DNA of 53,282 bases from a virus. Taxonomy: Duplodnaviria; Caudoviricetes. The DNA is taken from positions 1 through 53,282 of IMG/VR virus record IMGVR_UViG_3300021471_000002. One strand, given 5' to 3'. Of the stretch, positions 24,670 to 44,249 are shown piece after piece; within the stretch, counting starts at the first letter, position 1; the number at the start of each line of letters is the position of its first letter. Made by a program: the position numbers and the translations under genes. The notes below the pieces were generated by a model that worked only from the letters and a program-made list of their open reading frames with translations, was not told the DNA's origin and searched no databases.

Positions 24670-25185
24670 TTATTGCTGTTTGAATGTGAACTGCACGTTA
24701 CCGAGCAGATAGCGTCCCAGCGCGACCGCCACGGGGGTGAAAAACGAGAACAAAATCTCGCTGAGCACGCCGTAGACCACCAGGACGATGATGATCGAGA
24801 ATACGGCGCTCTCCCACCCCCGTGCCGGCTCGTACAGAGCGAAGAAGTCGAGGACGCTGTCCAGCGCGAACATCGCGGCAGACACCGCCCGAAGTACGGC
24901 GTGGTCTGAAAGAGAGGTCAGGCCGCTGACCAGCGCGGTGAAAAATACGATCTGGATCACCGTTGGCAGCATTGCCAACGTAGCGCCGAGTACCCTCGGC
25001 GCGGCGTCGATAGCGGTGTGCGTCTCGACCATCACGCCCCAGCCGGTGTAGCTGGCCATGACGTCGTAGACGAAAATCACCGCGGCCGCGATTGACAACA
25101 CTGTCGAGAGCACGAACACAATCCAAACCGCCGTCCGCTGAGCAGTTTGTGCCCAGCCCTTGATTGAATCAACTATTGCTGTCAT
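24670..25185 (-). CDS. Membrane protein (about 4 TM)
   Basis: Four long hydrophobic segments; SD AAGGAG. Confidence 0.7.
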   Translation of the reverse strand: MTAIVDSIKGWAQTAQRTAVWIVFVLSTVLSIAAAVIFVYDVMASYTGWGVMVETHTAIDAAPRVLGATLAMLPTVIQIVFFTALVSGLTSLSDHAVLRAVSAAMFALDSVLDFFALYEPARGWESAVFSIIIVLVVYGVLSEILFSFFTPVAVALGRYLLGNVQFTFKQQ

Positions 25186-27486: not shown

Positions 27487-29384
27487 CTCATCCACTCCTG
27501 CTCAATTGCCGTCACGTTTGACAGCAGTGTGAGCGGGCCGCGACGTGTGCGGATTTGCCACACCCTGTCGGCTACGATGTAGGCGGGCAACACACTGAGA
27601 AGAGCGGAGTTGCGCGCGATCTGGGCGTACGTGCAGGCGCCGGCGCGATGGTTTATGTACAAGTTGTAGTTTACACTACGCCACGTGTCCCTGGCTCCGG
27701 CCGCCAGTGCGCGGCGGACGACGGATGCCGGGGCGAGATCGGCGTCGTCATCGGCGTTGATGTTGGTGATCGCTGCGATCTGACGGAAAATGCTACGTGC
27801 CTCCAGCAACGATGAACGCCGCAGGAATTTGTCGCGGCAGAATTCACGTGAGAAGTCGGCGGTGGCCGCTGCGCGGTACGCAGCGAGGAGGGCAAAAGCA
27901 TCGCTGAGTTTCTCACGTGCCGCCGCGATGAACTCCGCATGTGCTTGATCCGCCTCTTGTTCCATTCCGCGCGGGCGGATGAGCACGTTTTGGACGCTCA
28001 TCAATGCAACTATGATAGCGACGGTGTGCTGGCAATCCAGACGTCTGGCTTCGATGAGCGTGCGGCTGTAGCGCGGGACGACAGGTATTTTCGACATCTG
28101 TCGGCCTATTTCCGTGATCACGCCACGCTCATCGAGTGCTCCGATAGCCGCCAGCTCTTGTTCGGCGTTCAGTATCCTTTCCTTGCCTGGGTGATCCAGG
28201 AAGGGGAGGGCGTTGACGTCGGTGATGCCGGCAGCTTTCAGCAGCAACACGACGTTGCTGAGGTTCATTCGTTTGATCTCCGGTACGCGGTAGCGCGGTA
28301 GCGCCGCGTGATCCTCGGCGCTCCACAGGCGGTAGCACACGCCATCGCCGGTGCGGCCGCAACGCCCGGCGCGCTGTGTCGCCGAGCTTTGGGAGATGGC
28401 ACGCAGCTTCAGCGTGCCGATGCCGTGCTCGTATTCGAAGACGCGCTCCGTGCCGGTGTCGATGACGTACCGGACGGACGGTATTGTGAGCGATGTTTCT
28501 GCTATGTTGGTCGCGACGACGATCTTCCGCCGCGACGGTGGCGCCGGGTTCAGGGCGCGGTCTCTATCATCGTCGCTCACAGCGGAGTGCAATGGCACGA
28601 TTATATCGTCTGGATTGCGGACTCGCAGACAAGTGATGCAATCGGCGATTTCACGTTTGCCTGGTTGGAATACCAGCACATCGCCGGGGGGGAGTTCGTC
28701 GATGATGTCGGCGACGGTCCGACCGGGCGCGTACACAATGTCGACGTGGTGCCGGCGACCGGCAGCGGGGATGGTTTTTGCAATACGCCGGACGAGCTCG
28801 GTGCGAATCGCGCCGGAGACGACTATCTGTTGTGATGAGCCGAGGTAGTCCTGGATCATAGATATATCCAGAGTAGCGCTCATCACGACGACCGGCGTGG
28901 TCGGGTGCTTCAATCTGACGAGTGCCAGGGCGACATCGCCGAAGAGCGAGCGTTCGTGAAACTCGTCAAACACGAACGTGCCGACATCGTCGGTTGCATT
29001 AGCGATCAGCATACGCATGAGCGTGCCATCTGTGACGTACAGTAGACGTGTTTCGTCACAGATGCGCTCATCGAACCGCACAGAATATCCCACCTCCTCG
29101 CCGACGCGCCCGCCGCGCTGTACCGCCACGTACTCGGCGACCGCCCGGGCTGTCAGGCGGCGCGGCTGTGTGACCACGACGCGCTGCTTGCCCGCCAGTC
29201 CCGCGTCCAGGATGGCGGGGGGGATGGTGGTTGTTTTGCCGGTCCCGGTGGGGGCGACGACCACGGCGCTACCGTCGCGCCTCAGGGCCTCGATGGTTGC
29301 CTTGACCATCGAGGCCGGAGCGACGGTGGCGCCGGTGGGGACGGCGACACTATCGACGAGGACGGCGCGAACCAGGCCCTTCAT
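27483..29384 (-). CDS. DEAH/RHA-family helicase (HrpA/HrpB-like) with HA2 domain
   Basis: APTGTGKTT, TQPRR, VGYSVRF, TDG.L, DEFHERS, MSAT, LVFQPG, PLHS, ATNIAETSLTI, QRAGRCGRT, G.CYRLW, LGALD-like...G..M...P..PR; ATGA coupling at 29381-29384 (alternative start 29393). Confidence 0.92.
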   Translation of the reverse strand: MKGLVRAVLVDSVAVPTGATVAPASMVKATIEALRRDGSAVVVAPTGTGKTTTIPPAILDAGLAGKQRVVVTQPRRLTARAVAEYVAVQRGGRVGEEVGYSVRFDERICDETRLLYVTDGTLMRMLIANATDDVGTFVFDEFHERSLFGDVALALVRLKHPTTPVVVMSATLDISMIQDYLGSSQQIVVSGAIRTELVRRIAKTIPAAGRRHHVDIVYAPGRTVADIIDELPPGDVLVFQPGKREIADCITCLRVRNPDDIIVPLHSAVSDDDRDRALNPAPPSRRKIVVATNIAETSLTIPSVRYVIDTGTERVFEYEHGIGTLKLRAISQSSATQRAGRCGRTGDGVCYRLWSAEDHAALPRYRVPEIKRMNLSNVVLLLKAAGITDVNALPFLDHPGKERILNAEQELAAIGALDERGVITEIGRQMSKIPVVPRYSRTLIEARRLDCQHTVAIIVALMSVQNVLIRPRGMEQEADQAHAEFIAAAREKLSDAFALLAAYRAAATADFSREFCRDKFLRRSSLLEARSIFRQIAAITNINADDDADLAPASVVRRALAAGARDTWRSVNYNLYINHRAGACTYAQIARNSALLSVLPAYIVADRVWQIRTRRGPLTLLSNVTAIEQEWMR

Positions 29385-30334: not shown

Positions 30335-31141
30335 GCGCTTTATTGTTCTCATTCGATAATCCGATCCGCGCATGTCAACGAACAGGCGGCCATAGTCTGA
30401 CATTTGCCAGAGCCGGGAGAACGAGGCCGGCCCGATCCAGGACGTCATCTCGGTTGGTTGCTTGTTGGTCGTGACGACGAGCGGACCGTGTACATACCGA
30501 CCGTTGATGATCTGGTACATCTTTTCCTGGTGCCAGGCGGTGTTGGCGACGTGCTCCAGGCCCATTTCATCCATCACCAGCAGGTCGGCGGTGGCGAGGT
30601 CGCGTATGATGCTGTACTCGCTTGCGGCCTCGTCGGCGTAGCTGGCGCGTATGCGGGCCAGGAGATCGGGGACAGAGACGGCCACGATGTGCCACCCGGC
30701 GGCGGTCAGTTCGTTGGCGATGGCGCTGGCGAGGTGGGTCTTGCCGGTGCCGAAATTGCCCCACAGGATCAGGGCGACGGGAATGCCCACCCGCGCCTCG
30801 CGACAGAACGCCTGCGCTGCCCGCAGGCCGCGCTGCTGGTATGGCAGCGTGGTCTCGAATTCAGCGAACGAGGCGCGGGGGTTGAGTGTCGTCCTGGCGA
30901 TGGCATCCTCCCTGGCGGATCGGATAAACTCTTGTTCCATCCTGCGCCGGTGGCACTCAAGGCACGGGACGAACGACTCCGCACCATTCTCTTCCGTGAA
31001 TACCCAGATCGGTTCGCCACACTCCGGGCAGGTGTGCACGGACGGGCGGAATCTCTCACGCCCCGGGACCCGGAGCAGGGGGGCGTTCAACAATTGCCGC
31101 AGCGACTGCGGCTTGTTGTTGTTCGATCTTATTGTGCTCAT
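30323..31141 (-). CDS. DnaC/IstB-like ATPase (helicase loader)
   Basis: CPECG...CLEC zinc motif, ASF.EF, Walker A GNFGTGKT, Walker B LLVMDEMG, IINGRY, TTN, SRL, G.DYR. Confidence 0.9.
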   Translation of the reverse strand: MSTIRSNNNKPQSLRQLLNAPLLRVPGRERFRPSVHTCPECGEPIWVFTEENGAESFVPCLECHRRRMEQEFIRSAREDAIARTTLNPRASFAEFETTLPYQQRGLRAAQAFCREARVGIPVALILWGNFGTGKTHLASAIANELTAAGWHIVAVSVPDLLARIRASYADEAASEYSIIRDLATADLLVMDEMGLEHVANTAWHQEKMYQIINGRYVHGPLVVTTNKQPTEMTSWIGPASFSRLWQMSDYGRLFVDMRGSDYRMRTIKRLTA

Positions 31142-31970
31142 TGTGTGTTTTCTCCTCGCGTTGTTTCCTCAGCCAGACCCGGGCCCGGGCCCAGTTACGC
31201 GGGATGTCCCACGGGTCCGGGGGTTGGCCGCGGCGACCGCGCCAATCGGCGGCATACCAATAGCGGGCAAACTGAGGAATGTGGGCCGGGGTTTTGCCGG
31301 CGTCAAGCAGCTGTTTCGTGACGCGATTGAGTTTTCCTCTATCGGTCTGTGTGATCAGTGTCAGATCAATTTGACACAGTTTTGCGATGGCGGCAAACAT
31401 TTCACGCCGCGTGCTTTCATCATCGCCGGGGGTTGAAACAGTACTCTCTGTAGAAGTACTCTCTGTAGAAGTACTCTCTGATATAGAATGCAGGTTTTCT
31501 GCATTCTGACCGGCATCAGATTGCAGGTTTTCCGCATTCTGACCGGCATCAGATTGCAGGTTTTCCGCATTCTGACCGGCGTCAGATTGCGGGTTTTCCG
31601 CATTCTGAGGTGTGTTCTGGGGATGGTCGTTCCGAGAATAGTACGAATCTATGAGTGCTACCAGGTTCTCGGTGTTCACGCGGTAGTGCAATTTTCCGCG
31701 TGGTCCGGTACGCATTTCGTCCAGCACACCGAGCTGCCGGAGCTTCCTACGGGCACTCTCTTGCTCCGTTCGAGTGAGTGCCGTTTCTGACTCGATCTCG
31801 GACTGGGTTTTCCAGATGTACCCGTCCGAGCGGTTGCCTTTTCCTGTCCAGTACAGTAGCTGGCACAGGAATACAGCCGCCTTGACACCGCCGACGATAC
31901 GGGCGATGTCGGGGTGGTAGGCCACCGGCCTGTCGGAGAGTAGACTCAGTAGTGCCCGTCCGTCGCTCAT
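31056..31970 (-). CDS. Replication initiator (lambda O/DnaD-like) containing tandem repeats
   Basis: RPVAYHP..ARIVGGVKAAVFLCQLLYW...WKT..E...ET.L...EQ..AR..L HTH; upstream of the DnaC-like gene; SD AGGAGG before ATG 31970. Confidence 0.82.
   Translation of the reverse strand: MSDGRALLSLLSDRPVAYHPDIARIVGGVKAAVFLCQLLYWTGKGNRSDGYIWKTQSEIESETALTRTEQESARRKLRQLGVLDEMRTGPRGKLHYRVNTENLVALIDSYYSRNDHPQNTPQNAENPQSDAGQNAENLQSDAGQNAENLQSDAGQNAENLHSISESTSTESTSTESTVSTPGDDESTRREMFAAIAKLCQIDLTLITQTDRGKLNRVTKQLLDAGKTPAHIPQFARYWYAADWRGRRGQPPDPWDIPRNWARARVWLRKQREEKTHNEHNKIEQQQAAVAAAIVERPPAPGPGA
31441..31608. repeat. Iteron-like arrays (putative ori): about 2.7 x 15 bp and 3.6 x 33 bp
   Basis: gtactctctgtagaa at 31441/31456/31471; tgcaggttttccgcattctgaccggcatcagat at 31489/31522/31555/31588. 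Confidence 0.75.
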
Positions 31971-31989
31971 CAACAAACCTCCTGAAAAC

Positions 31990-32112
31990 AAAAGTGCCCG
32001 ACTCTCTGAGCGAGGGCGTGACGGTGGCCTACCCCAAGAAAGGCCTTTGCCCACGCCCAGAGAGTCGGGCGCTTTTTTACCTTTTTCACCTTGGGGTTCG
32101 TCGGCCCGTCAC
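31990..32112 (-). ncRNA. Structured leader RNA, C4/CI-antisense-like
   Basis: 19-bp stem 31990-32008/32058-32076 with inner stems; bulge and loop are complementary to 32090-32112 and 31916-31927. Confidence 0.55.
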
Positions 32113-33803: not shown

Positions 33804-34295
33804 TTATGACTCCTCGATGGTGTACACCAGGTAGGTGTACCACCCGCCACCGTCCTCTGTGTGCGAGGAGACGATGATTGGATCGTCCTCGGTCGGCAGG
33901 CCCGGCTCGTCCGGCTTCTTGTAGCCGGCCGGGCATTCATCGAGCGGGAGCAGGTCATCATACACGCGCTCGATGACGACGGCGCGGCGGCGGAGGCGCG
34001 GGTTGCGGATGGATTCTACGGGGCGGATTACGAGCTGGTAATGCTCGAAGTCCACACCATCCTCGGCGTCCATGTGTCCTGTGTGGCGCCGGAAGTGCGC
34101 TACACAGGGGGTAGTGATGATGTCATAGAATCCGAATCCGGTGGGGATACGAATGGCGAACGGGAGGCGGTAGGCGCTGTTGCTGGCGAGATGTACCGCG
34201 TCCATACGACCGCCATAGTTGGCGCGGTGCTCGATCTCCGCGCAGTTTTCAAGATACAGGTTTGTGATTTCAAAGTATACGGACATTTTACTCAA
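33804..34295 (-). CDS. Hypothetical protein
   Basis: Coupled ORF with AAGGAG. Confidence 0.55.
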   Translation of the reverse strand: MSKMSVYFEITNLYLENCAEIEHRANYGGRMDAVHLASNSAYRLPFAIRIPTGFGFYDIITTPCVAHFRRHTGHMDAEDGVDFEHYQLVIRPVESIRNPRLRRRAVVIERVYDDLLPLDECPAGYKKPDEPGLPTEDDPIIVSSHTEDGGGWYTYLVYTIEES

Positions 34296-34818
34296 CTCCT
34301 TGTTTAATGTGATTGGCCCGGCAGTACTGTGCCAGGCGGTTTCTTATGCGCGTGCGGTACACGCGCACCGTGTTCACGTTCATTCCGAGCACGTCAGCGA
34401 TGACGGCGTTGTCTCTGACACCCTCGAGGACGAGCAACAAAATGCGCGCCTCGGTCTGCGCGATTTTGTGTCCCCGCTCGCCACCGCGGCGGCCGGCGAG
34501 TAGGATGTCAACTATCTCGCTCTCGGTGAGTGAGATAGTTGTGCTATCATCATCATCATCATCATCGTCGTGGATCAGATTTTCGAGGTAGTCATACTGG
34601 ATCGTGGACGAGGGATTTTTTCCGAAAATGCTGCGAGAGATGTATTTGCAGCATTCGCGGACTGCGGCGCCGAACGCGTAACCCGGATCGCGGTCCCGCA
34701 GGCGCCACAGGGTAACATCCGCGACCTGCTCCAGGTCCTCGATGTCCTGAGGGGACAGGTCGGGATGGTTCATTTTGGCTATGGCTCGCCAGGCTGCGGC
34801 TCGTGCTCTCATCGTCAT
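34288..34818 (-). CDS. ECF sigma factor-like / LuxR-type HTH protein
   Basis: Region-2-like DIEDLEQVA...LW and region-4 HTH IADVLGMNVNTVRVYRTRIRNRL; ATGA coupling at 34815-34818. Confidence 0.65.
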   Translation of the reverse strand: MTMRARAAAWRAIAKMNHPDLSPQDIEDLEQVADVTLWRLRDRDPGYAFGAAVRECCKYISRSIFGKNPSSTIQYDYLENLIHDDDDDDDDSTTISLTESEIVDILLAGRRGGERGHKIAQTEARILLLVLEGVRDNAVIADVLGMNVNTVRVYRTRIRNRLAQYCRANHIKQGVE

Positions 34819-35291
34819 TTGACACCTCGGAACTCGTCCGCCCACTGGAACCGGCATCCCGCCGCTTCTGCGGCTTGCCGGTCGGACTCGGAGTCTCCGA
34901 CAAACACTGTGTCTACGGGCGAGACTCCAAACTCCCGCATCCACTCCAAGAGCATCCCCGGGTTTGGCTTCTTGCGCGGTGAACGTGCCACCGCAAACTT
35001 GTAGCCGTCCAGAGACAGGCGGTGGCACAGCCACCGCATATGCGCGTGAACCTGCCCCAACGTAATCCTACCGCCGGGGCGGTTGAACCGTGCTCCGCCT
35101 TGGTTGGAGGCCAGGACAATGTGCTGTGTCCCGGCCTCCCGTGCCGTCCGAATCGCATCCTCGACGCCGGGGAGCAATTGGCGCTCAAAAGCACCAGTGC
35201 TCCCCTGACGGAACGGGGTCAGCGTTCCGTCGGCGTCGAGGATGAGAAGTTTAACCGGCGAAATGTCGGCCCCATCTACTTTTTCAGCCAT
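34815..35291 (-). CDS. HAD-IIIA phosphatase (GmhB/histidinol-phosphatase/PNKP-like)
   Basis: LDADGTL, LLPGV, SNQGG, RKKPNPGML, FVGDSESD..AAEAAG. Confidence 0.88.
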   Translation of the reverse strand: MAEKVDGADISPVKLLILDADGTLTPFRQGSTGAFERQLLPGVEDAIRTAREAGTQHIVLASNQGGARFNRPGGRITLGQVHAHMRWLCHRLSLDGYKFAVARSPRKKPNPGMLLEWMREFGVSPVDTVFVGDSESDRQAAEAAGCRFQWADEFRGVK

Positions 35292-37428: not shown

Positions 37429-37507
37429 GGGCTGTGGCCCCCATCTGTACTAACAGTATACCACATCCGTACACGTTTGTCAAGCTTTTTTGAACAATTT
37501 TAAGATT
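37429..37507 (-). promoter_or_regulatory. Strong sigma70 promoter with A-rich UP element, duplicated at 50058-50137
   Basis: TTGACA(37483-37478)-17 bp-TATACT(37460-37455), TGn extension. Confidence 0.8.
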
Positions 37508-37817
37508 AGAGAGCACCGAACCACCGGAGGATGTCTTCGGTGCCGGTGGCGATTATGAGAGGTGCATCGCCGTGGCCACCAACGCTGGCGGCAAACGCAG
37601 CCTCGGATCGGCTGAGTTTCCGGCCTGGCTGTTTGACCTCGACGCCCAGGATTTCCGTTCGTCCGGTTCGGCGGTTGAATCCCCAGACATACAGGTCTAC
37701 GCCGGCGCTTGCGACCGGCAGCGCGGACACATCGCACACGACGAAGCCGAGCGAGCGCAGCTCGCGAACAATAGCGGACTGGTTCTTGTCCGAACGCGGG
37801 TGGTGGGGGCGGGCCAT
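37506..37817 (-). CDS. PD-(D/E)XK nuclease (VRR-NUC/Holliday-junction-resolvase-like)
   Basis: R.D.NQ..IV..LR..G..V, G.DL.V.G, EVK.PG..L...E..F. Confidence 0.75.
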   Translation of the reverse strand: MARPHHPRSDKNQSAIVRELRSLGFVVCDVSALPVASAGVDLYVWGFNRRTGRTEILGVEVKQPGRKLSRSEAAFAASVGGHGDAPLIIATGTEDILRWFGAL

Positions 37818-37826
37818 CTGGAGTGG

Positions 37827-38216
37827 TCAGTAGTTGTTGTTGTCGCCGATTATGGTGAACCGCCGCGCGCTCTCGCTCTCGCCGTCATCGGAGTGATAGT
37901 ATGGCATGAGTGTGTTCCACCAGCTGCTACGCCGGTGGTCCGGCGGTGCTACTACAACAACCGGCGGGTATAGCTGTTGGTAGTGCTGCTGATGCTGCTG
38001 ATGGTGCTGTTGCCGTTGACTAGCCTCTCGCCTGCCGATCAGGAAGAGGATCAGGCCGGTGGGGATAGCTGCTCCGACACCGCATGTTGCGCCTGCCAGA
38101 ACCGCCAGCGCCTCGTCGCTCAGTCGGTTGAGGACGATGGTGGCCATCGTTGCGAGCAGTACAGCCAGCAGTACAGTGAGCGCTATTTTCGTTGATCTCG
38201 TGTTACTCGTGAACAT
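37827..38216 (-). CDS. Two-TM membrane protein with Gln/His/Pro-rich tail
   Basis: RLSDEALAVLAGATCGVGAAIPT, PPVVVV, RRFTIIG; SD GGAGGTG; resembles proteins recalled beside FtsK in Chloroflexota mobile elements. Confidence 0.65.
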   Translation of the reverse strand: MFTSNTRSTKIALTVLLAVLLATMATIVLNRLSDEALAVLAGATCGVGAAIPTGLILFLIGRREASQRQQHHQQHQQHYQQLYPPVVVVAPPDHRRSSWWNTLMPYYHSDDGESESARRFTIIGDNNNY

Positions 38217-38240
38217 TTTCACCTCCGAAAGTGCGACGCC

Positions 38241-38370
38241 GGCTTCACACCCGACGCCGGGGAGCCACGCAGCGCTACCACGCCATAGCAAACCATTCTG
38301 CTACCGCCGAGCGGTAGCAGGGTGTCCGACCGGGACACAGATGCTGCTTCTGGAAGCGGTAGCGGTAGCG
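38241..38370. other. Multi-hairpin intergenic structure (ncRNA or ssDNA signal)
   Basis: Stems 38298-38307/38311-38320, 38322-38327/38333-38338, 38343-38349/38354-38360, closed by 38273-38279/38364-38370. Confidence 0.5.
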
Positions 38371-38449
38371 ATTACTTATGCCGCCGCCGGTTGTGCAGGA
38401 ACGTAGCCGGCCGTGCACGTGCCGGGATTATCGTTTTCACTCTCGAATG

Positions 38450-39760
38450 CTACAATTCCCCGCGCAGCCGATCCACTGCCTGGCAGACCAGCGCGAAGCG
38501 GCGGCCACCTTCCGCTTCTCCGAGGGCGCGGCAAGCGGAGCGGTATGACCCGCCCGGGTCCCAGCCGGCCTTGCGCAGCCGGTCGATCATCGTCGTGACC
38601 TCGTCAACCGGGGGCGTGGCGGGTGGAAGTGTCGAGGGTGGCATTGTTATTGCCGGGCTAGGCTGCTCCGTCAGCTCATCCGCCACCGCCGCTTGCGGTA
38701 TGACAGCCGGTAAGCCATACAGTTCCTCCATCACCTCCGCGATCTCATCGTGGGAGATGTAGGCGCTCTGGAAGTGGATCACGCGTCCTTTTGCCACGGC
38801 CAGAAAGTCTCCCTGTCCCGTCAACCGCTCGGCTCCCGTGCCGCTCCAGCCGGTCGCGGTGCGGGCGTCCTCGATGCTGGTGACGCGCCCGACAAGCCGC
38901 ACCGGGAAGTTTGCCTTGACCAGCGGGCCCAGCACGGCGGCGGTGGGTTTCTGCGTTGCCGCGACGATGTGGATGCCGGCCTCGCGGCCGCGCTGTGTCA
39001 GTCGCGTTAGCGCCTGTTGTGCCGGTTTCCCGCTCACCATCAGCAGATCCGCCAGCTCATCGATCACGACTACTACAGGCGGCGGTGTAGAGCTTCTGTT
39101 ATGACCTCGACCTCGTCTTTCCATCAGTCGCACGAGGCTGAGGAGCGCTTCAGTTGCCTCGCTCGCATCATGGATGACCGGACGGACCAGGTGGGGCAAT
39201 CCTGCGAAGATGCTGAAGGCGTGTCCCTTGGGGTCTATGAGCACCAGCGCCAGCTCGTGGCCTTCCCCCGCGCGGGGAGAGGAGAAGGGAGTATTGGCCA
39301 CCGCCAGGCTCAGGATCATCGCCTGGAGGAGCACCGTCTTCCCCGACCCGGTGGTGCCGGCCGTCAGGACGTGAGCCACGCTGGGAGATGGCAATCGGAT
39401 AAGTAGCGGTGAGCCGTCCTCGGCCAGGCCGAGGACGGCGGTGGCCGGCGGGACGACATCCAGGTTGATCTGGCGAAGCAGAGGCAGCAGGCGCACCGGC
39501 TGCGGGTCGGTGCGAGGGATTTCGATGGCTACAGTAGCTCCCTGCCGGGAGACACGACAATCTGGTGCGTCGAGGGCGGATGCGAGCTCCTCGTGCAGGC
39601 CTTTGATCCTGGATATTCTGGCGCCTACGGCGGGCAGCACCTCGAAGCGCACCCAGCGTGGCGTGACCGTTCCGCCGGTCACACGTGCGCGCACTCTGTG
39701 CGATGATAGCACTGCCTCGATTCGGTCTGCCATAAACTCCAACTCGCGTTTCGTAGTCAT
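38450..39760 (-). CDS. FtsK/SpoIIIE-family DNA translocase (soluble, TraB-like)
   Basis: Alpha domain G.RISRIK.L..ELA.AL...V.IEIP; HVL.AGTTGSGKT, LIDPKG, IDELADL, GR.AGIH...ATQKP, GAERL.G.GD.L; Pro linker plus short helical C-terminus; no N-terminal TM. Confidence 0.9.
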   Translation of the reverse strand: MTTKRELEFMADRIEAVLSSHRVRARVTGGTVTPRWVRFEVLPAVGARISRIKGLHEELASALDAPDCRVSRQGATVAIEIPRTDPQPVRLLPLLRQINLDVVPPATAVLGLAEDGSPLLIRLPSPSVAHVLTAGTTGSGKTVLLQAMILSLAVANTPFSSPRAGEGHELALVLIDPKGHAFSIFAGLPHLVRPVIHDASEATEALLSLVRLMERRGRGHNRSSTPPPVVVVIDELADLLMVSGKPAQQALTRLTQRGREAGIHIVAATQKPTAAVLGPLVKANFPVRLVGRVTSIEDARTATGWSGTGAERLTGQGDFLAVAKGRVIHFQSAYISHDEIAEVMEELYGLPAVIPQAAVADELTEQPSPAITMPPSTLPPATPPVDEVTTMIDRLRKAGWDPGGSYRSACRALGEAEGGRRFALVCQAVDRLRGEL

Positions 39761-39782
39761 TTTTCGCTCTCAGATTTTTGCC

Positions 39783-40262
39783 TCAGGACGGTGTCTCCGG
39801 CGGCTCGTCCGGCGGCTCGTCCGGCGGCGGTGGCAGTATGCTCAGATCGCCGTCGCTGCAATCGTAGAGGGAATAACCAGTCTTCTCTGCGTACTGCGCC
39901 GCCTTCCTTCGTGCTACCTCGAGGCGTAAGCCTCGCACGCTGCCGCCACCCCACGGGTGGGTGAAATCGTCCGGGAAGTCATTCGTATCATCGCTCATCA
40001 CGACGATTGCGTGCCGCTCGCGGGAATACAACACCTGGAATCGTGGGCCGGCGTAGTATTTCGGTGCCTGATCGTGGAATTCGAGAACGGCATCGATCTC
40101 TGCCCGGACCTCGCGTTTGCACGCATCCAGGAGGACGGAGCGAACGTCGGCGGGGTCGTCATCATCATCAAGCTGTGCTGTGATCATCACGGATGGTTTC
40201 ACATTAGCGTCAGGTAGACTGATGGTTTCTGTCCACCCGACACGGACCCGGATCGTTTTCAT
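39783..40262 (-). CDS. Hypothetical protein
   Basis: SD AAAGGA; acidic, Pro-rich tail. Confidence 0.6.
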   Translation of the reverse strand: MKTIRVRVGWTETISLPDANVKPSVMITAQLDDDDDPADVRSVLLDACKREVRAEIDAVLEFHDQAPKYYAGPRFQVLYSRERHAIVVMSDDTNDFPDDFTHPWGGGSVRGLRLEVARRKAAQYAEKTGYSLYDCSDGDLSILPPPPDEPPDEPPETPS

Positions 40263-40414
40263 TGTTTTTTAATCCTTTCTTGTCTTGTCTTGCTGTTGAG
40301 CGGCCCGACCGGCCAGGTCGCACTACCGTCAACCACCTCTGCCGGTACCGGTTGCCGCTCGTGTTTCTGTGTCTTTTGCGTAAGCCGAGCCGTGTATGTG
40401 TCGCCTCACCGCAC

Positions 40415-41125
40415 CTATTCGACTCCTACCTCTACCTCCGCCGGGTCGACGCACACCTCTATCTGCCCGTCGCGGCGGGCGATCAGCCCGATCTGCTCGA
40501 GGCGGGCGAGGTGGTGCGCGACGGTCTGCCGCGTGACACCTGCAGCCTGCGCGATTTCTGATTGTGTCTGCGTCTGGTCAGCGGCGACTATGCGGAGTAT
40601 TTGCCGCGCCGTTTGCCCGATGTTGCGCAGATTTTGCCGCGCTTCTGCGCGTTCTCTGCGCTTCTGCGCGTTCTCTGCGCGTTCTCTGCGCCGTTGCTGC
40701 CTGGCAGCTTCGATGTCTGCCAGTCGCCGGCGGTGGTCGGCGCGGATGGCGATGACGGCCGTGCCGGCGAACGACAGGAGTGGAAACACCACCGGGGCAT
40801 ACACCGCGAGCCGGGGCGCGGTGTCGAGTAGAACGGTTAGACTGATTACGGCGATAAAGTAGACGCCCACCAGTGCCAGGCTGAGCGCAAGCGGGGCACT
40901 GGGGTCGGTCTTGCGTTTGCTGCGGTCGTAGTTCCAGAGCATCAGCGCGGTCGCTGTGGTCGCCAGACCAAGGCTCTCGATTGTGATCCCCGCGCTAACC
41001 GCAACCCAGATGGGCCATTTCAGGCGGTTATAAACCGCCTGGCCGACCAGGTACGCGGTTGGCAGCGGGGCGCCCCACGGCGCCACGCGGGCGATGATGT
41101 CTACGGCGGTGCTCTCGATATTCAC
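40415..41125 (-). CDS. Four-TM protein with coiled coil and C-terminal winged HTH (SpdA/KilB/DUF2637-like architecture)
   Basis: Hydrophobic N-half; TQSEIAQAAGVTRQTVAHHLARLEQIGLI. Confidence 0.7.
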   Translation of the reverse strand: MNIESTAVDIIARVAPWGAPLPTAYLVGQAVYNRLKWPIWVAVSAGITIESLGLATTATALMLWNYDRSKRKTDPSAPLALSLALVGVYFIAVISLTVLLDTAPRLAVYAPVVFPLLSFAGTAVIAIRADHRRRLADIEAARQQRRRERAENAQKRRERAEARQNLRNIGQTARQILRIVAADQTQTQSEIAQAAGVTRQTVAHHLARLEQIGLIARRDGQIEVCVDPAEVEVGVE

Positions 41126-41144
41126 AAGACACCACCACCTTCAA

Positions 41145-41351
41145 CTACTTTACCGCAGCAACGGTGTCCAGCACCTCTGCGGCGTTGCTGGGCGGGGCGA
41201 CGTCGTGCTCGCGCAGGGGTGCGATTTCAACGTATGTGAACCCCTGGCGCGTGATAATCACGCGGTGTCCCGCGACTGCTGCGTCGCAGAGACGGCCGAA
41301 CATCGCCCGGGCGTCGGACAGCGATACATAGATTGTTGCTTTCTCGTTCAT
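41145..41351 (-). CDS. Phd/YefM antitoxin-fold DNA-binding protein (orphan)
   Basis: VSLSDAR..F..L...A..G..VIITR.G; SD AGGAGG; first gene of the leftward arm. Confidence 0.72.
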   Translation of the reverse strand: MNEKATIYVSLSDARAMFGRLCDAAVAGHRVIITRQGFTYVEIAPLREHDVAPPSNAAEVLDTVAAVK

Positions 41352-41397
41352 TCTGTCACCTCCTATTGCTGATATAGTGTAAGTGTGCTACGCGCGT

Positions 41398-41427
41398 ATT
41401 GTACCATATTAACACCGCACTTGTCAA
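41398..41427 (-). promoter_or_regulatory. Leftward sigma70 promoter
   Basis: TTGACA-18 bp-TACAAT, TGn. Confidence 0.65.
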
Positions 41428-41471
41428 GTAAGTCCCTCGCGGCTTTCTCTCAAGACCCGGGCGGTTATGTG

Positions 41472-41501
41472 TTGACACGGCACGGTGTGTTGTTGTATAA
41501 T
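41472..41501 (+). promoter_or_regulatory. Rightward sigma70 promoter (divergent switch)
   Basis: TTGACA-18 bp-TATAAT, 9 nt before ATG 41511. Confidence 0.75.
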
Positions 41502-41510
41502 AATGACACC

Positions 41511-42824
41511 ATGATCGAGCTGCGGGACAGAATCATCGATCTGCGGCGCATTGACAGTGCGGAGTTGCAAGACAACGATGGCAACTGGCGCACCCACCCA
41601 CTGGCGCAGCGCGAGGCGCTGGCGGCTGTGCTGGACGAGGTAGGGATTGTCAACGCGCTCATTGCATACGAAAGTGAGCGGCAGGGAGGCCTGACGCTGA
41701 TAGACGGCCACCTCCGGGCGAATGAACACGCCGGAGTGTGGCCGGTTTTGGTTTTGGACCTCACCGACGACGAAGCGGACGTGGTACTGGCGACTCTGGA
41801 TCCGCTGGCAGGGATGGCGCGAACCATACCGGGGGCGTTGGCGTCGTTGGTGGATGGCATCACCGACGTCTCTCCCGACGTCCAGGCGACGTTGGACGCT
41901 ATTGCCAGGCAGGCGGACGGTGACATAGCGCACGCGATGGACGGTGACGGCGAGGTTGTCGAAGAGGGCGAGGCACGGGATCGTTTGGTGGCGGACTGGG
42001 AGATCGAGCGGGGCGCGGTGTGGTCTATCAGCTCGGCCTCGGTACGCGGCGGCGCGCATCGGGTAATGTGTGGCTCATCGCTAGAGCGCAGGGATCTCGA
42101 TGTGTTGTTCGACGGTCGCGTGGCCGATATGGTGTTTACCGATCCGCCCTACGGCATCCGGTTCGAGCCGGAGGATAGGAAACTCCGTGCTCGCGGCCCG
42201 CGTCACCGGTTCGCCGGCGGCATCATCGGTGACGATCAAGAGTTCGAGCAAAAAAAGTGGCTGTCGGCTGTTGATTCTTACTACGCCGGCGCGATATACA
42301 TCTGCGCTGCTAGAGACAGCTACCCGGAGCTGTGGACCTGGCTGCGGATCAGGTATGGCCGTCCGCCGACGGTCATCGTCTGGGTGAAAGAGATGTTCAC
42401 GATGACCCGGCGCGATTACCATCACCAGCATGAATTCTTGTTCTACGGTGAGAGCGGTGATGCTGGTCAGGCGTTGAACGACGAGATGATGGACGCCGGC
42501 GGGGGGATGGTGTTGTACTCCTGGAATGCCCGCCGCCGGTGGCTGGCCGGGCGAGGGGAGACGGATTTGTGGTTCATCAGGCGGGTGTCGTTGCGTGAGT
42601 ATGTACATCCGACACAGAAGCCGGTCGAGTTGGTCGAGCGAGCGATCACGAACTCCTGTCAGCGGGGAGGCGTGGTCGCCGATTTTTTTGGCGGGTCGGG
42701 GACAACGATGGTGGCGGCGGAGCGGACCGGGCGATTATCGTTGACGATGGAGCTGGATCCGCGTTTTGTCGCCGTCACGCTGAACCGCGCCCGCAGCCTG
42801 GGGCTGCGGGTCGAGCGGCTGTGA
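41511..42824 (+). CDS. ParB-like N-domain + beta-class DNA methyltransferase (DPPY, likely m6A)
   Basis: NWR.HP..Q...VG...LIDGH.R; HR..CG.S, FTDPPYG, HPTQKPVEL, DFFGGSGTT..AAE..GR...ELDP. Confidence 0.88.
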   Translation: MIELRDRIIDLRRIDSAELQDNDGNWRTHPLAQREALAAVLDEVGIVNALIAYESERQGGLTLIDGHLRANEHAGVWPVLVLDLTDDEADVVLATLDPLAGMARTIPGALASLVDGITDVSPDVQATLDAIARQADGDIAHAMDGDGEVVEEGEARDRLVADWEIERGAVWSISSASVRGGAHRVMCGSSLERRDLDVLFDGRVADMVFTDPPYGIRFEPEDRKLRARGPRHRFAGGIIGDDQEFEQKKWLSAVDSYYAGAIYICAARDSYPELWTWLRIRYGRPPTVIVWVKEMFTMTRRDYHHQHEFLFYGESGDAGQALNDEMMDAGGGMVLYSWNARRRWLAGRGETDLWFIRRVSLREYVHPTQKPVELVERAITNSCQRGGVVADFFGGSGTTMVAAERTGRLSLTMELDPRFVAVTLNRARSLGLRVERL

Positions 42825-42839
42825 AATTCAGGAGGTAAT

Positions 42840-44249
42840 GTGACAGAGAAGCGAAAGACACAGCACGGCTACCGTGATCGTATTGTCGAACTGGTACGTG
42901 TACACTCCTCCGATCTGCAGGACAACGAGGGTAACTGGCGCGTGCATCCCCTGGCGCAGCGCGAGGCGCTGGCCGGGATTCTGGAGCAAGTCGGGATCGC
43001 CGATGCTCTGCTGGCGTACAGATCGCAGCGCGCCGGCGGGGCTCTGGTCGTAATTGACGGTCATCTGCGCCGTGAATTCGGCGGTACCTGGCCGGTGTTG
43101 ATCCTGGACGTCACCGACGACGAGGCCGATCTGCTGTTGACCACGCTGGATCCGCTGGCATCACTGGCGCAGATGGACGGGGATAAGATGCGCGAGCTAA
43201 CGGAGCGTGTAGCACAATCGGCGGACGCGCGACTGCGGACGATGCTGGCCGATCTCGGTACAGAGGCCGAGTTGGCGGCATTTCGTGCCGCCGCCGCTGT
43301 GGAGAGTGGTAGCACGGACGACGCAGAGGTGCCGGACTACGTCGAGGCGGCGGATACGTTGCTGGAGAAGTGGGAGGTGCGATACGGCGACGTATGGAGT
43401 GCGTGCGACGGTGAGCATTTCATCATCTGCGGCGACTGCCGCGAGGCGGCGACGTGGGAGCGGCTGCTGGGAGCAGCGGGACTCGACAGTGTCAATGGTG
43501 TGATCACCTCCCCGCCATACGCCGAACAGCGGAAGAAGCAGTACGGCGGCGTGCCAGAAGGCGAGTATGTGGACTGGTTCGAGGCAGTTCAACGGAATAT
43601 CCGCACGTGGCTGGCCGACGACGGTAGTTTTTTTCTGAACATCAAGCCGCATGCGGCACGAGGTCAGCGCGTGCTGTACGTGTTCGACCTGGTGCTGGCG
43701 ATGGTGCGGAGGTGGGACTGGATGTTTGTCGACGAGTTGATCTGGTACAAAATCGGTCTCCCCGGCGGCTGGCGTAACCGATTGCGCAACTGCTTCGAGC
43801 CGATCTATCATTTCTCGAAGCAGCGGCAGATACGATTCTACCCGCGCAACGTGGGGTCGGAGGGCGACGTGCCCCGCTATCGCGTTCCGGGTAACTGGAA
43901 TCCGAAGACAGGGAACGCCGGTATACCGCCGGCGAATCGCCGTGAGCGTGGAGTGGCGCGGCCGGGCAACGTGATCCAGGTGCATGTGAACCAGGAGGCG
44001 CTGCCGCACGCTGCCGTGTTCCCGGTGGCGCTGGTCGAGTTTTTCGTCAAACTGGCCTCGGAAGATGGCAATGTGTGGCTGGATCCGTTCTTGGGCAGCG
44101 GCACGACAATCGTGGCGGCGCACCGCCTGGGTCGGCGGGGGCTGGGGATCGAGCATCTGGCGAGGCACGTTGCCGTGTCGCTGGAACGGATGGCTGCGCT
44201 GGGCATGGAGCCGCGGCTGGAGCGGCGGGAGGAGAAGGAGGAGGAGTAG
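42840..44249 (+). CDS. ParB-like N-domain + beta-class DNA methyltransferase (SPPY, likely m4C)
   Basis: Same N-domain; ICGDC, TSPPY, IWYK, H.AVFP..L, DPFLGSGTT. Confidence 0.88.
   Translation: MTEKRKTQHGYRDRIVELVRVHSSDLQDNEGNWRVHPLAQREALAGILEQVGIADALLAYRSQRAGGALVVIDGHLRREFGGTWPVLILDVTDDEADLLLTTLDPLASLAQMDGDKMRELTERVAQSADARLRTMLADLGTEAELAAFRAAAAVESGSTDDAEVPDYVEAADTLLEKWEVRYGDVWSACDGEHFIICGDCREAATWERLLGAAGLDSVNGVITSPPYAEQRKKQYGGVPEGEYVDWFEAVQRNIRTWLADDGSFFLNIKPHAARGQRVLYVFDLVLAMVRRWDWMFVDELIWYKIGLPGGWRNRLRNCFEPIYHFSKQRQIRFYPRNVGSEGDVPRYRVPGNWNPKTGNAGIPPANRRERGVARPGNVIQVHVNQEALPHAAVFPVALVEFFVKLASEDGNVWLDPFLGSGTTIVAAHRLGRRGLGIEHLARHVAVSLERMAALGMEPRLERREEKEEE

Follow-up and report, generated by a model that had tools for sequence, protein, structure and literature searches.

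FtsK-like genes are already known from phages, and the soluble ATPases that they encode in Mycobacterium phage Omega (gp203), in Bacillus gamma-like phages and in RBClin15 stand in some cases beside par or rep genes. In Bacillus plasmid prophages, FtsK/SpoIIIE genes beside par or rep genes have been read as segregation functions without tests, as far as the available parts of two reports go (PMC11526630; 10.1101/2025.11.07.687105), and in Bacillus gamma-like phages a phage sigma factor and an FtsK/SpoIIIE gene occur together, according to the accessible portion of the source (PMC4113786). Two other systems serve for comparison: the canonical FtsK of Escherichia coli and Pseudomonas aeruginosa (PDB 2ius, 2iut, 6t8b, 6t8g), and TraB, the FtsK-like pump that acts with Spd proteins in Streptomyces plasmids such as pSVH1 and in actinomycete integrative and conjugative elements (AICEs). 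Here we analyze the FtsK operon of a tailed phage, the complete genome of which is contained in the IMG/VR virus record IMGVR_UViG_3300021471_000002 (53,282 bases, analyzed at full length and in the following called the window). A preliminary description of this DNA had taken the operon, then given as 37827–41351, for a TraB/Spd-like module that transfers double-stranded DNA between cells, and had named segregation as an episome as a second option. We read the pump as an episome segregation or DNA-clearing module that would keep the non-integrated phage genome in dividing cells; of the readings considered, we regard this as the best one, at about even odds.

The FtsK motor and its chromosomal relatives

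The FtsK of the window (38450–39760, minus strand) is a soluble paralog of 436 residues. Its alpha+beta motor takes up residues 1 to ~350 and is joined by a disordered linker to a C-terminal domain that is specific to the phage-type copies. Two Pfam domains were detected, FtsK_alpha (PF17854; E 2.7e-12, 47.2 bits), which begins already at residue 3, and FtsK_SpoIIIE (PF01580; E 1.1e-34, 120.3 bits). As the alpha domain leaves no room in front of it and a Kyte–Doolittle scan revealed no hydrophobic segment in the protein, the earlier view of an FtsK without membrane anchor is upheld. The Walker A residues K141/T142 and the Walker B residues D234/E235 are invariant in the family alignment, and the AlphaFold model (mean pLDDT, the predicted local distance difference test, 76) matched solved FtsK motors (6t8g and 2iut) at E ~1e-27 with 32–36% identity and the TcpA structure at E ~1e-15. 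With canonical FtsK, the protein thus shares the predicted fold of the alpha+beta motor and intact Walker motifs, but it differs in having neither the 4TM domain nor the long linker nor the gamma domain that reads the FtsK-orienting polar sequences (KOPS), and its putative anchor is encoded by a separate gene. The canonical 4TM (PF13491) and gamma (PF09397) domains were found neither in the window FtsK nor among its best 120 homologs.

These homologs point to a chromosomal source. A large protein collection contained 3582 proteins that match the window FtsK, and the best 120 of them are nearly all 350–470 residues long, with alpha and beta domains only; several carry source names of Anaerolineae or Chloroflexota genomes. 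Most of these 120 match the first 79% of the phage protein at 70–75% identity, and a minority matches over the full length, including the C-terminal extension, at 63–66% identity. FtsK-like genes were also matched by 305 phage records. In a scan with one genome per species, at least 449 FtsK relatives were found among 600 candidate stretches, and the best 80 loci all belong to Chloroflexota (Anaerolineae, Thermoflexales, Caldilineales, and Ardenticatenia). The whole set of fetched FtsK loci comprises 82; L-numbers below refer to fetched loci. The nearest cellular relatives of the window FtsK (68–74% identity) sit among lexA, holA, and DUF6391 genes, and clustering of open reading frames (ORFs) together with Pfam searches identified LexA (upstream in 24 loci), the DNA polymerase III delta subunit, and DUF6391 as recurrent neighbors of short ftsK, which therefore has a chromosomal setting. 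Host genomes retain full-length FtsKs beside the short ones: five genomes each encode two long FtsKs (207–228 bits on PF01580) and one or two short ones (63–87 bits). Six long host FtsKs were scanned, and each combines alpha, beta, and gamma domains, with 4TM in addition in three; the three scanned short ones contain alpha and beta domains only.

A phylogenetic tree agrees with this distinction. The tree had 109 rows, into which 66 of the 82 loci entered, namely those for which a simple ORF caller gave an FtsK ORF. The short FtsKs form one clade of 95 rows, separate from the long FtsKs (support of 99 in the Shimodaira–Hasegawa-like approximate likelihood ratio test, SH-aLRT), and the window falls into a subclade of 41 rows (support 95) together with Anaerolineae sequences from loci of the lexA/holA context. 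Mycobacterium phage Omega gp203, in contrast, groups with the long canonical FtsKs, and the FtsKs of the known phages and plasmid prophages have only ~35% identity to the window FtsK. From these sequence relationships we conclude that the phage motor derives from the Chloroflexota chromosomal short-FtsK family. This single gene makes a Chloroflexota host of the Anaerolineae type probable; the probable host classes include filamentous members, according to those parts of the literature that were accessible.

The tree position, which the preliminary description had itself named beforehand as an outcome that would speak against it, also bears on the assignment of the motor to TraB. The NCBIfam FtsK model PRK10263 scores 153.8 bits on the 436-residue protein, versus 23.0 bits (E 2.4e-5) for the TraB model NF041214 with its cut-off of 800. 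Because of this difference and the position inside the chromosomal family, we do not regard the motor as a TraB; the verdict concerning TraB is one of the hidden Markov model score, as the tree contained TcpA, Omega gp203, and canonical FtsKs and no TraB. A match on a Streptomyces plasmid, H65, had been considered as a TraB representative but proved to be an EccC-like type VII ATPase, and a search of that plasmid with the TraB model returned only this EccC-like protein (33.8 bits). Both the score and the chromosomal descent argue against the idea that the phage has rebuilt the SOS pump of its host, with the help of a membrane-bound DNA-binding protein, to push double-stranded DNA through the septa along a filament without lysis, in addition to producing virions. 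We consider such TraB-like spread improbable, although the filamentous members in the classes of the probable hosts would suit it, and further evidence on both sides is given below.

The membrane partner, the LexA box, and the phage-type domain

Directly downstream of ftsK, the operon encodes a membrane protein of 129 residues with two transmembrane (TM) segments in the hydropathy plot (37827–38216, minus strand). It consists of a TM hairpin, a Pro/Gln-rich tail with the motif YPPVVVV, and a C-terminal RRFxIIG. Its start is most likely the ATG at 38216, which follows a Shine–Dalgarno sequence (GGAGGTG), and 38291 is merely the start of the longest ORF; the resulting length agrees with relatives of ~130 residues. 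In the family alignment, P52, R118, and G124 are invariant, and a YPPVVV-like stretch and a C-terminal RxFxVxG are shared. In a comparison of the 49 window proteins with the 82 FtsK loci, FtsK itself was matched in all 82 and the 2-TM protein in 41, each time immediately behind FtsK; apart from the methylases, no other window protein had a match. We therefore built a partner profile from 33 sequences and applied it to the 74 loci with at least 700 bases downstream of FtsK. In 71 of these, a partner gene follows on the same strand at a distance of at most 1.5 kb, the exceptions being L017, L034, and L063, and none of the loci has a match to the profile elsewhere. Five whole genomes are in line with this, as eight of their nine partner genes adjoin an FtsK_SpoIIIE match. 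Since the partner is co-conserved downstream of FtsK to this degree, the data support the earlier suggestion that the 2-TM protein is a split anchor, or fixed partner, of the soluble FtsK; that the two proteins bind each other we infer from this conservation. Complex predictions of motor residues 1–352 with the partner tail (residues 62–129) scored 0.17 and 0.13 (mark 0.32) in runs without controls and speak neither for nor against binding.

Some observations on the host loci may be added. The Caldilineaceae genome of locus L068 (G003; contigs C1, C16, and C25) encodes the 2-TM partner four times and has no fewer than three short FtsK-like genes; one of the partner copies (C25:15665–16072) has no FtsK match listed alongside. 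Small conserved ORFs accompany the host operon, namely a Cys-rich protein of 145–161 residues between lexA and short ftsK (e.g., L051 9483–9968) and a conserved 82-residue protein after the partner gene (e.g., L045 11664–11912); neither of the two belongs to a Pfam family.

The proximity to lexA is accompanied by LexA boxes. A perfect GAAC-N4-GTTC box lies within −250 to +10 of short ftsK in 35 of 76 loci, whereas 67 of 4302 further windows taken from these loci contain one (Fisher p 3e-39). As 29 of the 30 lexA genes in these loci carry the box themselves (with up to one mismatch), the motif is valid for these organisms. Being encoded beside lexA and behind LexA boxes, the host pair is probably an SOS operon, and short FtsK and its partner would constitute a damage-induced DNA pump that is tethered to the membrane via a separate polypeptide. 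The E. coli ftsK gene is likewise SOS-induced, from the dinH promoter, according to the part of the report available (PMC4080785). The phage operon shares with the Chloroflexota operon the motor clade, the restriction of the motor to alpha and beta domains, and the partner family directly downstream, but it differs in its setting in a phage early operon, in the absence of a LexA box, in a three-helix C-terminal domain, and in a structured spacer of 233 nt. No LexA box was found between 37400 and 41700 of the window, even with one mismatch, nor in the four other phage-type loci. Three perfect boxes that the window does contain (678, 9955, and 33489) are far from the operon, and their count is within the range of shuffled sequences.

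The C-terminal domain comprises residues 387–436 (38453–38602, minus strand) and occurs in phage-type copies only. It is kept in all 14 full-length relatives that were aligned, with the consensus RL..GW...SYRxACRALGEAEGG..F.LV..AV.RL, and is absent from the short cellular proteins. The model predicts three helices with pLDDT >90 behind the disordered linker. Comparison with PDB folds gave no match with E <1; the best had E 1.4, and the weak matches were mostly mixed helix-turn-helix folds. An identification as FtsK gamma or another winged helix-turn-helix (wHTH) domain could not be upheld on this basis, as all PDB matches had E >1. The domain may read DNA.

Between the FtsK and the 2-TM genes lies the spacer (38217–38449, minus strand). 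Its claimed structure is borne out by folding, as none of 200 shuffled sequences folds as well (z −2.78). It contains four copies of GCTACCGC at 38300–38369, of which two overlap and two form an inverted pair that can fold into a perfect 10-bp hairpin. In the whole window, GCTACCGC is found 11 times versus 2.46 expected copies, a number that was reached in none of 100 shuffles. A role of the motif as a genome-wide signal was considered and dismissed, as the second cluster (28287–28336, three copies) is inside the coding frame of the helicase and the spacer is not conserved elsewhere: it was not found conserved in L002, L003, L011, or L017, and Rfam contains no family that matches it. The spacer may serve for protein binding, as a processing hairpin, or in attenuation. 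A combination of a phage-only three-helix domain with four GCTACCGC copies just behind the FtsK gene is also what TraB-like spread could make use of: by analogy, the pump would load onto a site of the phage DNA via its C-terminal helical domain, assisted by a four-helix DNA-binding membrane protein. In the accessible part of the TraB literature, the TraB C terminus recognizes direct 8-bp repeats in clt, and SpdB2 is an oligomeric DNA-binding membrane protein with four helices, homologs of which occur on actinophages (PMC4447253). The two overlapping copies and the inverted pair in the window, however, do not constitute a direct array.

Partition-like loci, the membrane wHTH protein, and the proposed function of the pump

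Evidence on the function of the phage version comes from other phage-type loci, as in three of four of these FtsK is encoded behind ParA. In L002, L003, and L011, the gene order corresponds to that of the window: a small DNA-binding protein, a protein of 254–261 residues, a protein of 123–144 residues, FtsK, and the 2-TM partner. The 254–261-residue protein is a ParA ATPase (AAA_31 E 6.5e-33 in L002; the three copies can be aligned at the Walker box KGGTAKTT), and it takes the position at which the window has a TM-wHTH gene. Between the small gene that follows parA and FtsK, all three loci contain arrays of 8-mers with a spacing of 12–13 bp, namely ACGGCACC and variants in L002 (5808–5889), ACGGTGTC/GACACCGT in L003 (5814–5897), and GGGGCCGT in L011 (6299–6378). 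These arrays are probably partition-site iterons, and combined with ParA and the small protein they resemble a partition locus of the plasmid type. Type Ib-like ParA/adaptor/iteron loci are thus similar in that such a set stands directly upstream of the phage-type FtsK in these three cases, but they differ from the window, which has no ParA and in which the TM-wHTH protein and an acidic 159-residue protein occupy its place. Two of the ParA-bearing phages with phage-type FtsK are 95–100% complete, and no tyrosine integrase was found in them. In six-frame searches of the whole 53,282-base record of the window, neither a tyrosine integrase nor a serine resolvase nor a ParA-type ATPase (AAA_31) was detected. 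The second option of the preliminary description, segregation as an episome, therefore gains support from a phage without integrase, resolvase, and ParA and from two integrase-less phages in which ParA is encoded directly upstream of FtsK.

According to this episome model, a two-gene cassette of a short soluble FtsK, without membrane and gamma domains, and its 2-TM partner was taken from the chromosome of a host, and the phage copies have lost the LexA box and gained the three-helix C-terminal domain. The 2-TM partner would tether motor hexamers at the membrane or the septum, and the C-terminal domain or the wHTH protein would direct the pump to phage DNA. At closing septa, the pump would then clear or distribute the copies of the non-integrated phage genome, with the result that daughter cells keep them. 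The TM-wHTH and the 159-residue proteins, which stand where ParA and an adaptor are encoded elsewhere, may tether or regulate the pump.

Several findings weigh against segregation as the function. ParA is absent from the window itself, and the GCTACCGC motif of its spacer is unlike the 12–13-bp iterons of the other phages. Locus L017, in which a phage-type copy stands beside an ORF of 2014 codons, has neither ParA nor the partner. In five other phage records, nothing matched the TerL of the window. No TerL common to the window and the two near-complete phages with ParA could be detected, and these phages are therefore relatives of the operon only and not of the phage backbone. Moreover, the phage-type motors are not one clade: forcing them into monophyly costs 153 log-likelihood units (p-AU 0.0017 in the approximately unbiased, AU, test, which followed the sight of the first tree and from which the long-branch rows CS_L009, CS_L013, and LONG_L093, products of bad ORF calls, were dropped). 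Repeated capture or exchange of the motor would account for this, as would a move of the C-terminal domain, and separate captures could therefore serve different ends. Among other phages that carry FtsK-like genes, of which Mycobacterium phage Omega and the Bacillus gamma-like phages are examples, some integrate. No repressor was identified in the phage, the episomal life of which we infer from its genes.

The missing repressor also fits the possibility that the pump acts in the lytic cycle or in host takeover and has no role in inheritance. The SOS pump would then untangle phage concatemers or clear them and host DNA from septa, or it would mimic part of the damage response of the host. PHROGs places the nearest phage families in the category 'moron, auxiliary metabolic gene and host takeover', and the operon is located among early and replication genes behind a consensus-like promoter. 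Such a lytic helper function would not explain, however, why the phage-type FtsK recurs behind ParA and iterons, nor why an integrase is lacking in three complete or near-complete phages with the phage-type gene, and we judge it unlikely. The recurrent position behind ParA and iterons, pointing to partition, likewise speaks against TraB-like spread.

In the TM-wHTH protein (40415–41125, minus strand; 236 residues), about four helices make up a conserved N-terminal domain, which a basic repeat linker connects to a C-terminal wHTH (HTH_24, E 6.4e-10, residues 172–215). The Kyte–Doolittle plot reveals strong hydrophobic segments at residues 75–130, and about four helices are conserved across the aligned family. 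The 116 relatives (37–51% identity) share the four-helix membrane domain and the wHTH, with a variable basic linker between them, and the membrane domain contains 26 invariant columns in 19 sequences. Tandem repeats of 18–19 nt within the gene (40639–40691) encode the basic linker RRERAENAQKRRERAEARQ, and the length of the linker varies across the family. No Pfam family covers the membrane part.

The preliminary description had combined FtsK, the TM-wHTH protein, and the 2-TM protein into one unit, but the TM-wHTH protein is not co-conserved with FtsK; only the 2-TM partner is. The TM-wHTH family occurs in none of the 82 FtsK loci. Conversely, 5 viral and 19 metagenome loci of the TM-wHTH family were fetched, 14 of which were usable (at least ~1.8 kb on both sides, or at least 3 kb downstream), and none of these 14 contains the 2-TM partner. 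An FtsK-like ATPase lies within 6 kb of the TM-wHTH gene in four of them (L098, L100, L101, and L107), and these ATPases are of a distant kind (~30% identity, no FtsK_alpha match); L099 has a fifth, weak FtsK-like candidate with membrane helices. Because of the absences in both directions, the three-gene set is, judged from the loci compared, peculiar to this phage, and the TM-wHTH protein has at most a loose link to FtsK-like ATPases. It is therefore quite possible, if somewhat doubtful, that the operon is not one machine, and that FtsK and its partner form a unit beside an unrelated TM-wHTH protein, which would be a membrane-bound transcription regulator or an exclusion protein. Besides the missing co-conservation, with 10 of 14 TM-wHTH loci having no FtsK-like ATPase within 6 kb, the integrases on three TM-wHTH contigs, including L102, are compatible with this separation. 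An FtsK-like ATPase in 4 of 14 loci is, on the other hand, by impression more than would be expected for a gene rare in phages, and the strong conservation of the membrane domain suggests that it is more than an anchor.

For TraB-like spread, the conserved four-helix wHTH membrane protein and its proximity to other FtsK-like ATPases in four loci are favorable, but its absence from all 82 FtsK loci and its separation from such ATPases in the remaining 10 of 14 loci are not. A possible relation of the TM-wHTH protein to SpdB_N or DUF2637 was followed and given up, as a protein atlas gave values at chance level (0.76–0.77) and Pfam assigned neither family to any of six N-terminal domains. Neither SpdB_N (PF27080) nor DUF2637 (PF10935) was matched by these six domains at E up to 10, and the Pfam entries precomputed for the 116 listed homologs include neither, which argues against a counterpart of Spd in the window. 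A DUF2637 search of five records found nothing, but it carries no weight, as the control genomes gave no match either. In its logic, the window may resemble TraB and Spd as the source describes them (PMC4447253), where an FtsK-like pump that recognizes DNA with its C-terminal domain acts near repeats of 8 bp and with DNA-binding membrane proteins of several helices, but the window FtsK fails the TraB model, has no N-terminal membrane part, is a chromosomal-paralog motor, and is accompanied by no Spd family detectable by Pfam. In the integrase-bearing viral contigs L099 (7832–9751) and L100 (2138–4006), FtsK-like/AAA ATPases of 622–639 residues with predicted N-terminal membrane helices are encoded beside the TM-wHTH protein, and this membrane-anchored architecture is nearer to TraB than is that of the window FtsK.

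The operon in its phage genome and its implications

The window begins and ends with an exact terminal repeat of 127 bp, as its first 127 bases recur at its end. Its structural genes encode TerL, a portal, a major head protein, a head protease, and a tape measure protein of 2077 residues, in agreement with the terminase and portal already reported in the preliminary description. Replication and regulatory genes encode an O-like/DnaD-like initiator, an AAA ATPase, a DEAH helicase, and a sigma-like protein. The latter is related to sigma-70 (34288–35034, minus strand; phrog_1740, E 1.3e-6). Four tandem repeats of ~33 bp (~31490–31610) lie within the initiator gene (31056–32054), comparable to a lambda-type origin inside an initiator gene.

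The FtsK operon consists of six genes on the minus strand that run leftward from 41427 to 37506, among early and replication genes. It is headed by a promoter-like site (41398–41427, minus strand; TTGACA-18-TACAAT with TG), which matches 11 of 12 hexamer positions and is identified by this consensus match; the next such site on the minus strand (37483–37455) is past the last gene. The operon site faces away from a site with 12 of 12 matches on the plus strand (41472–41501). In this divergent direction, two tandem genes with DNA methylase domains follow (41385–42824 and 42840–44249, plus strand; N6_N4_Mtase, phrog_498), and the true start of the first is probably downstream of the 12/12 promoter. 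At the equivalent position, L002 and L003 contain one divergent methylase gene (ParB-methylase).

All previously listed components, from the Phd-like gene to the 2-TM gene and including the spacer, were confirmed on the minus strand, but the extent of the operon had to be revised, as the 2-TM gene is shorter than had been listed and one further gene is part of the unit. The first gene encodes a Phd/YefM-like protein of 68 residues (41145–41351, minus strand), probably a DNA-binding regulator of the operon. Its match to PF02604 (E 2.6e-6) spans residues 8–37 only and reaches 27.6 bits with a cut-off of 29.8, and phmmer relates it weakly (E 7.6e-5 and 5.7e-4) to the protein encoded first in the corresponding operons of L002 and L003. 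No toxin is encoded beside it; the adjoining gene is that of the TM-wHTH protein and is not Doc- or YoeB-like. The acidic 159-residue protein with a Pro/Asp/Glu tail (39783–40262, minus strand) has no family match and no relative in any fetched locus. The added last gene (37506–37817, minus strand; 103 residues) belongs, by its position before the next promoter-like site, to the same transcription unit. Its likeness to VRR-NUC is faint (VRR_NUC E 0.051, below the cut-off), and an identification as VRR-NUC was abandoned, as a comparison with L100, which has a clear VRR-NUC gene, revealed no similarity (E 3.8). Outside the operon, the protein encoded at 24670–25185 had been described as having four TM segments, whereas three long hydrophobic segments are seen. 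It has no family match, and nothing was found that ties it to the FtsK operon.

A limited literature search returned no report of a Chloroflexota short FtsK that has its membrane partner on a separate polypeptide, and among the 19 annotated features near Omega gp203, as judged from the annotation and not from a profile search, no membrane partner is named. Relative to the searchable literature, the two-part form with a membrane partner, the origin in a Chloroflexota SOS operon, the phage-type C-terminal domain, and the exchange of ParA for a membrane wHTH protein are new. FtsK-like genes of phages are often annotated and have been left unexplained; in this case, the origin can be traced to one half of a two-part DNA pump of the host. 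The AU test indicates that phages or phage-like contigs took up this pump more than once, dropped its LexA control, and added a small domain to it. If the TraB-like reading were true, the pump would represent a second, independent origin of FtsK-driven transfer of double-stranded DNA between cells. The split of motor and anchor into two polypeptides provides a natural experiment on the role of the FtsK membrane domain, and the episome reading offers a testable model for how phages without integrase may be inherited in a phylum that is little studied, mostly uncultured, and in many cases filamentous.

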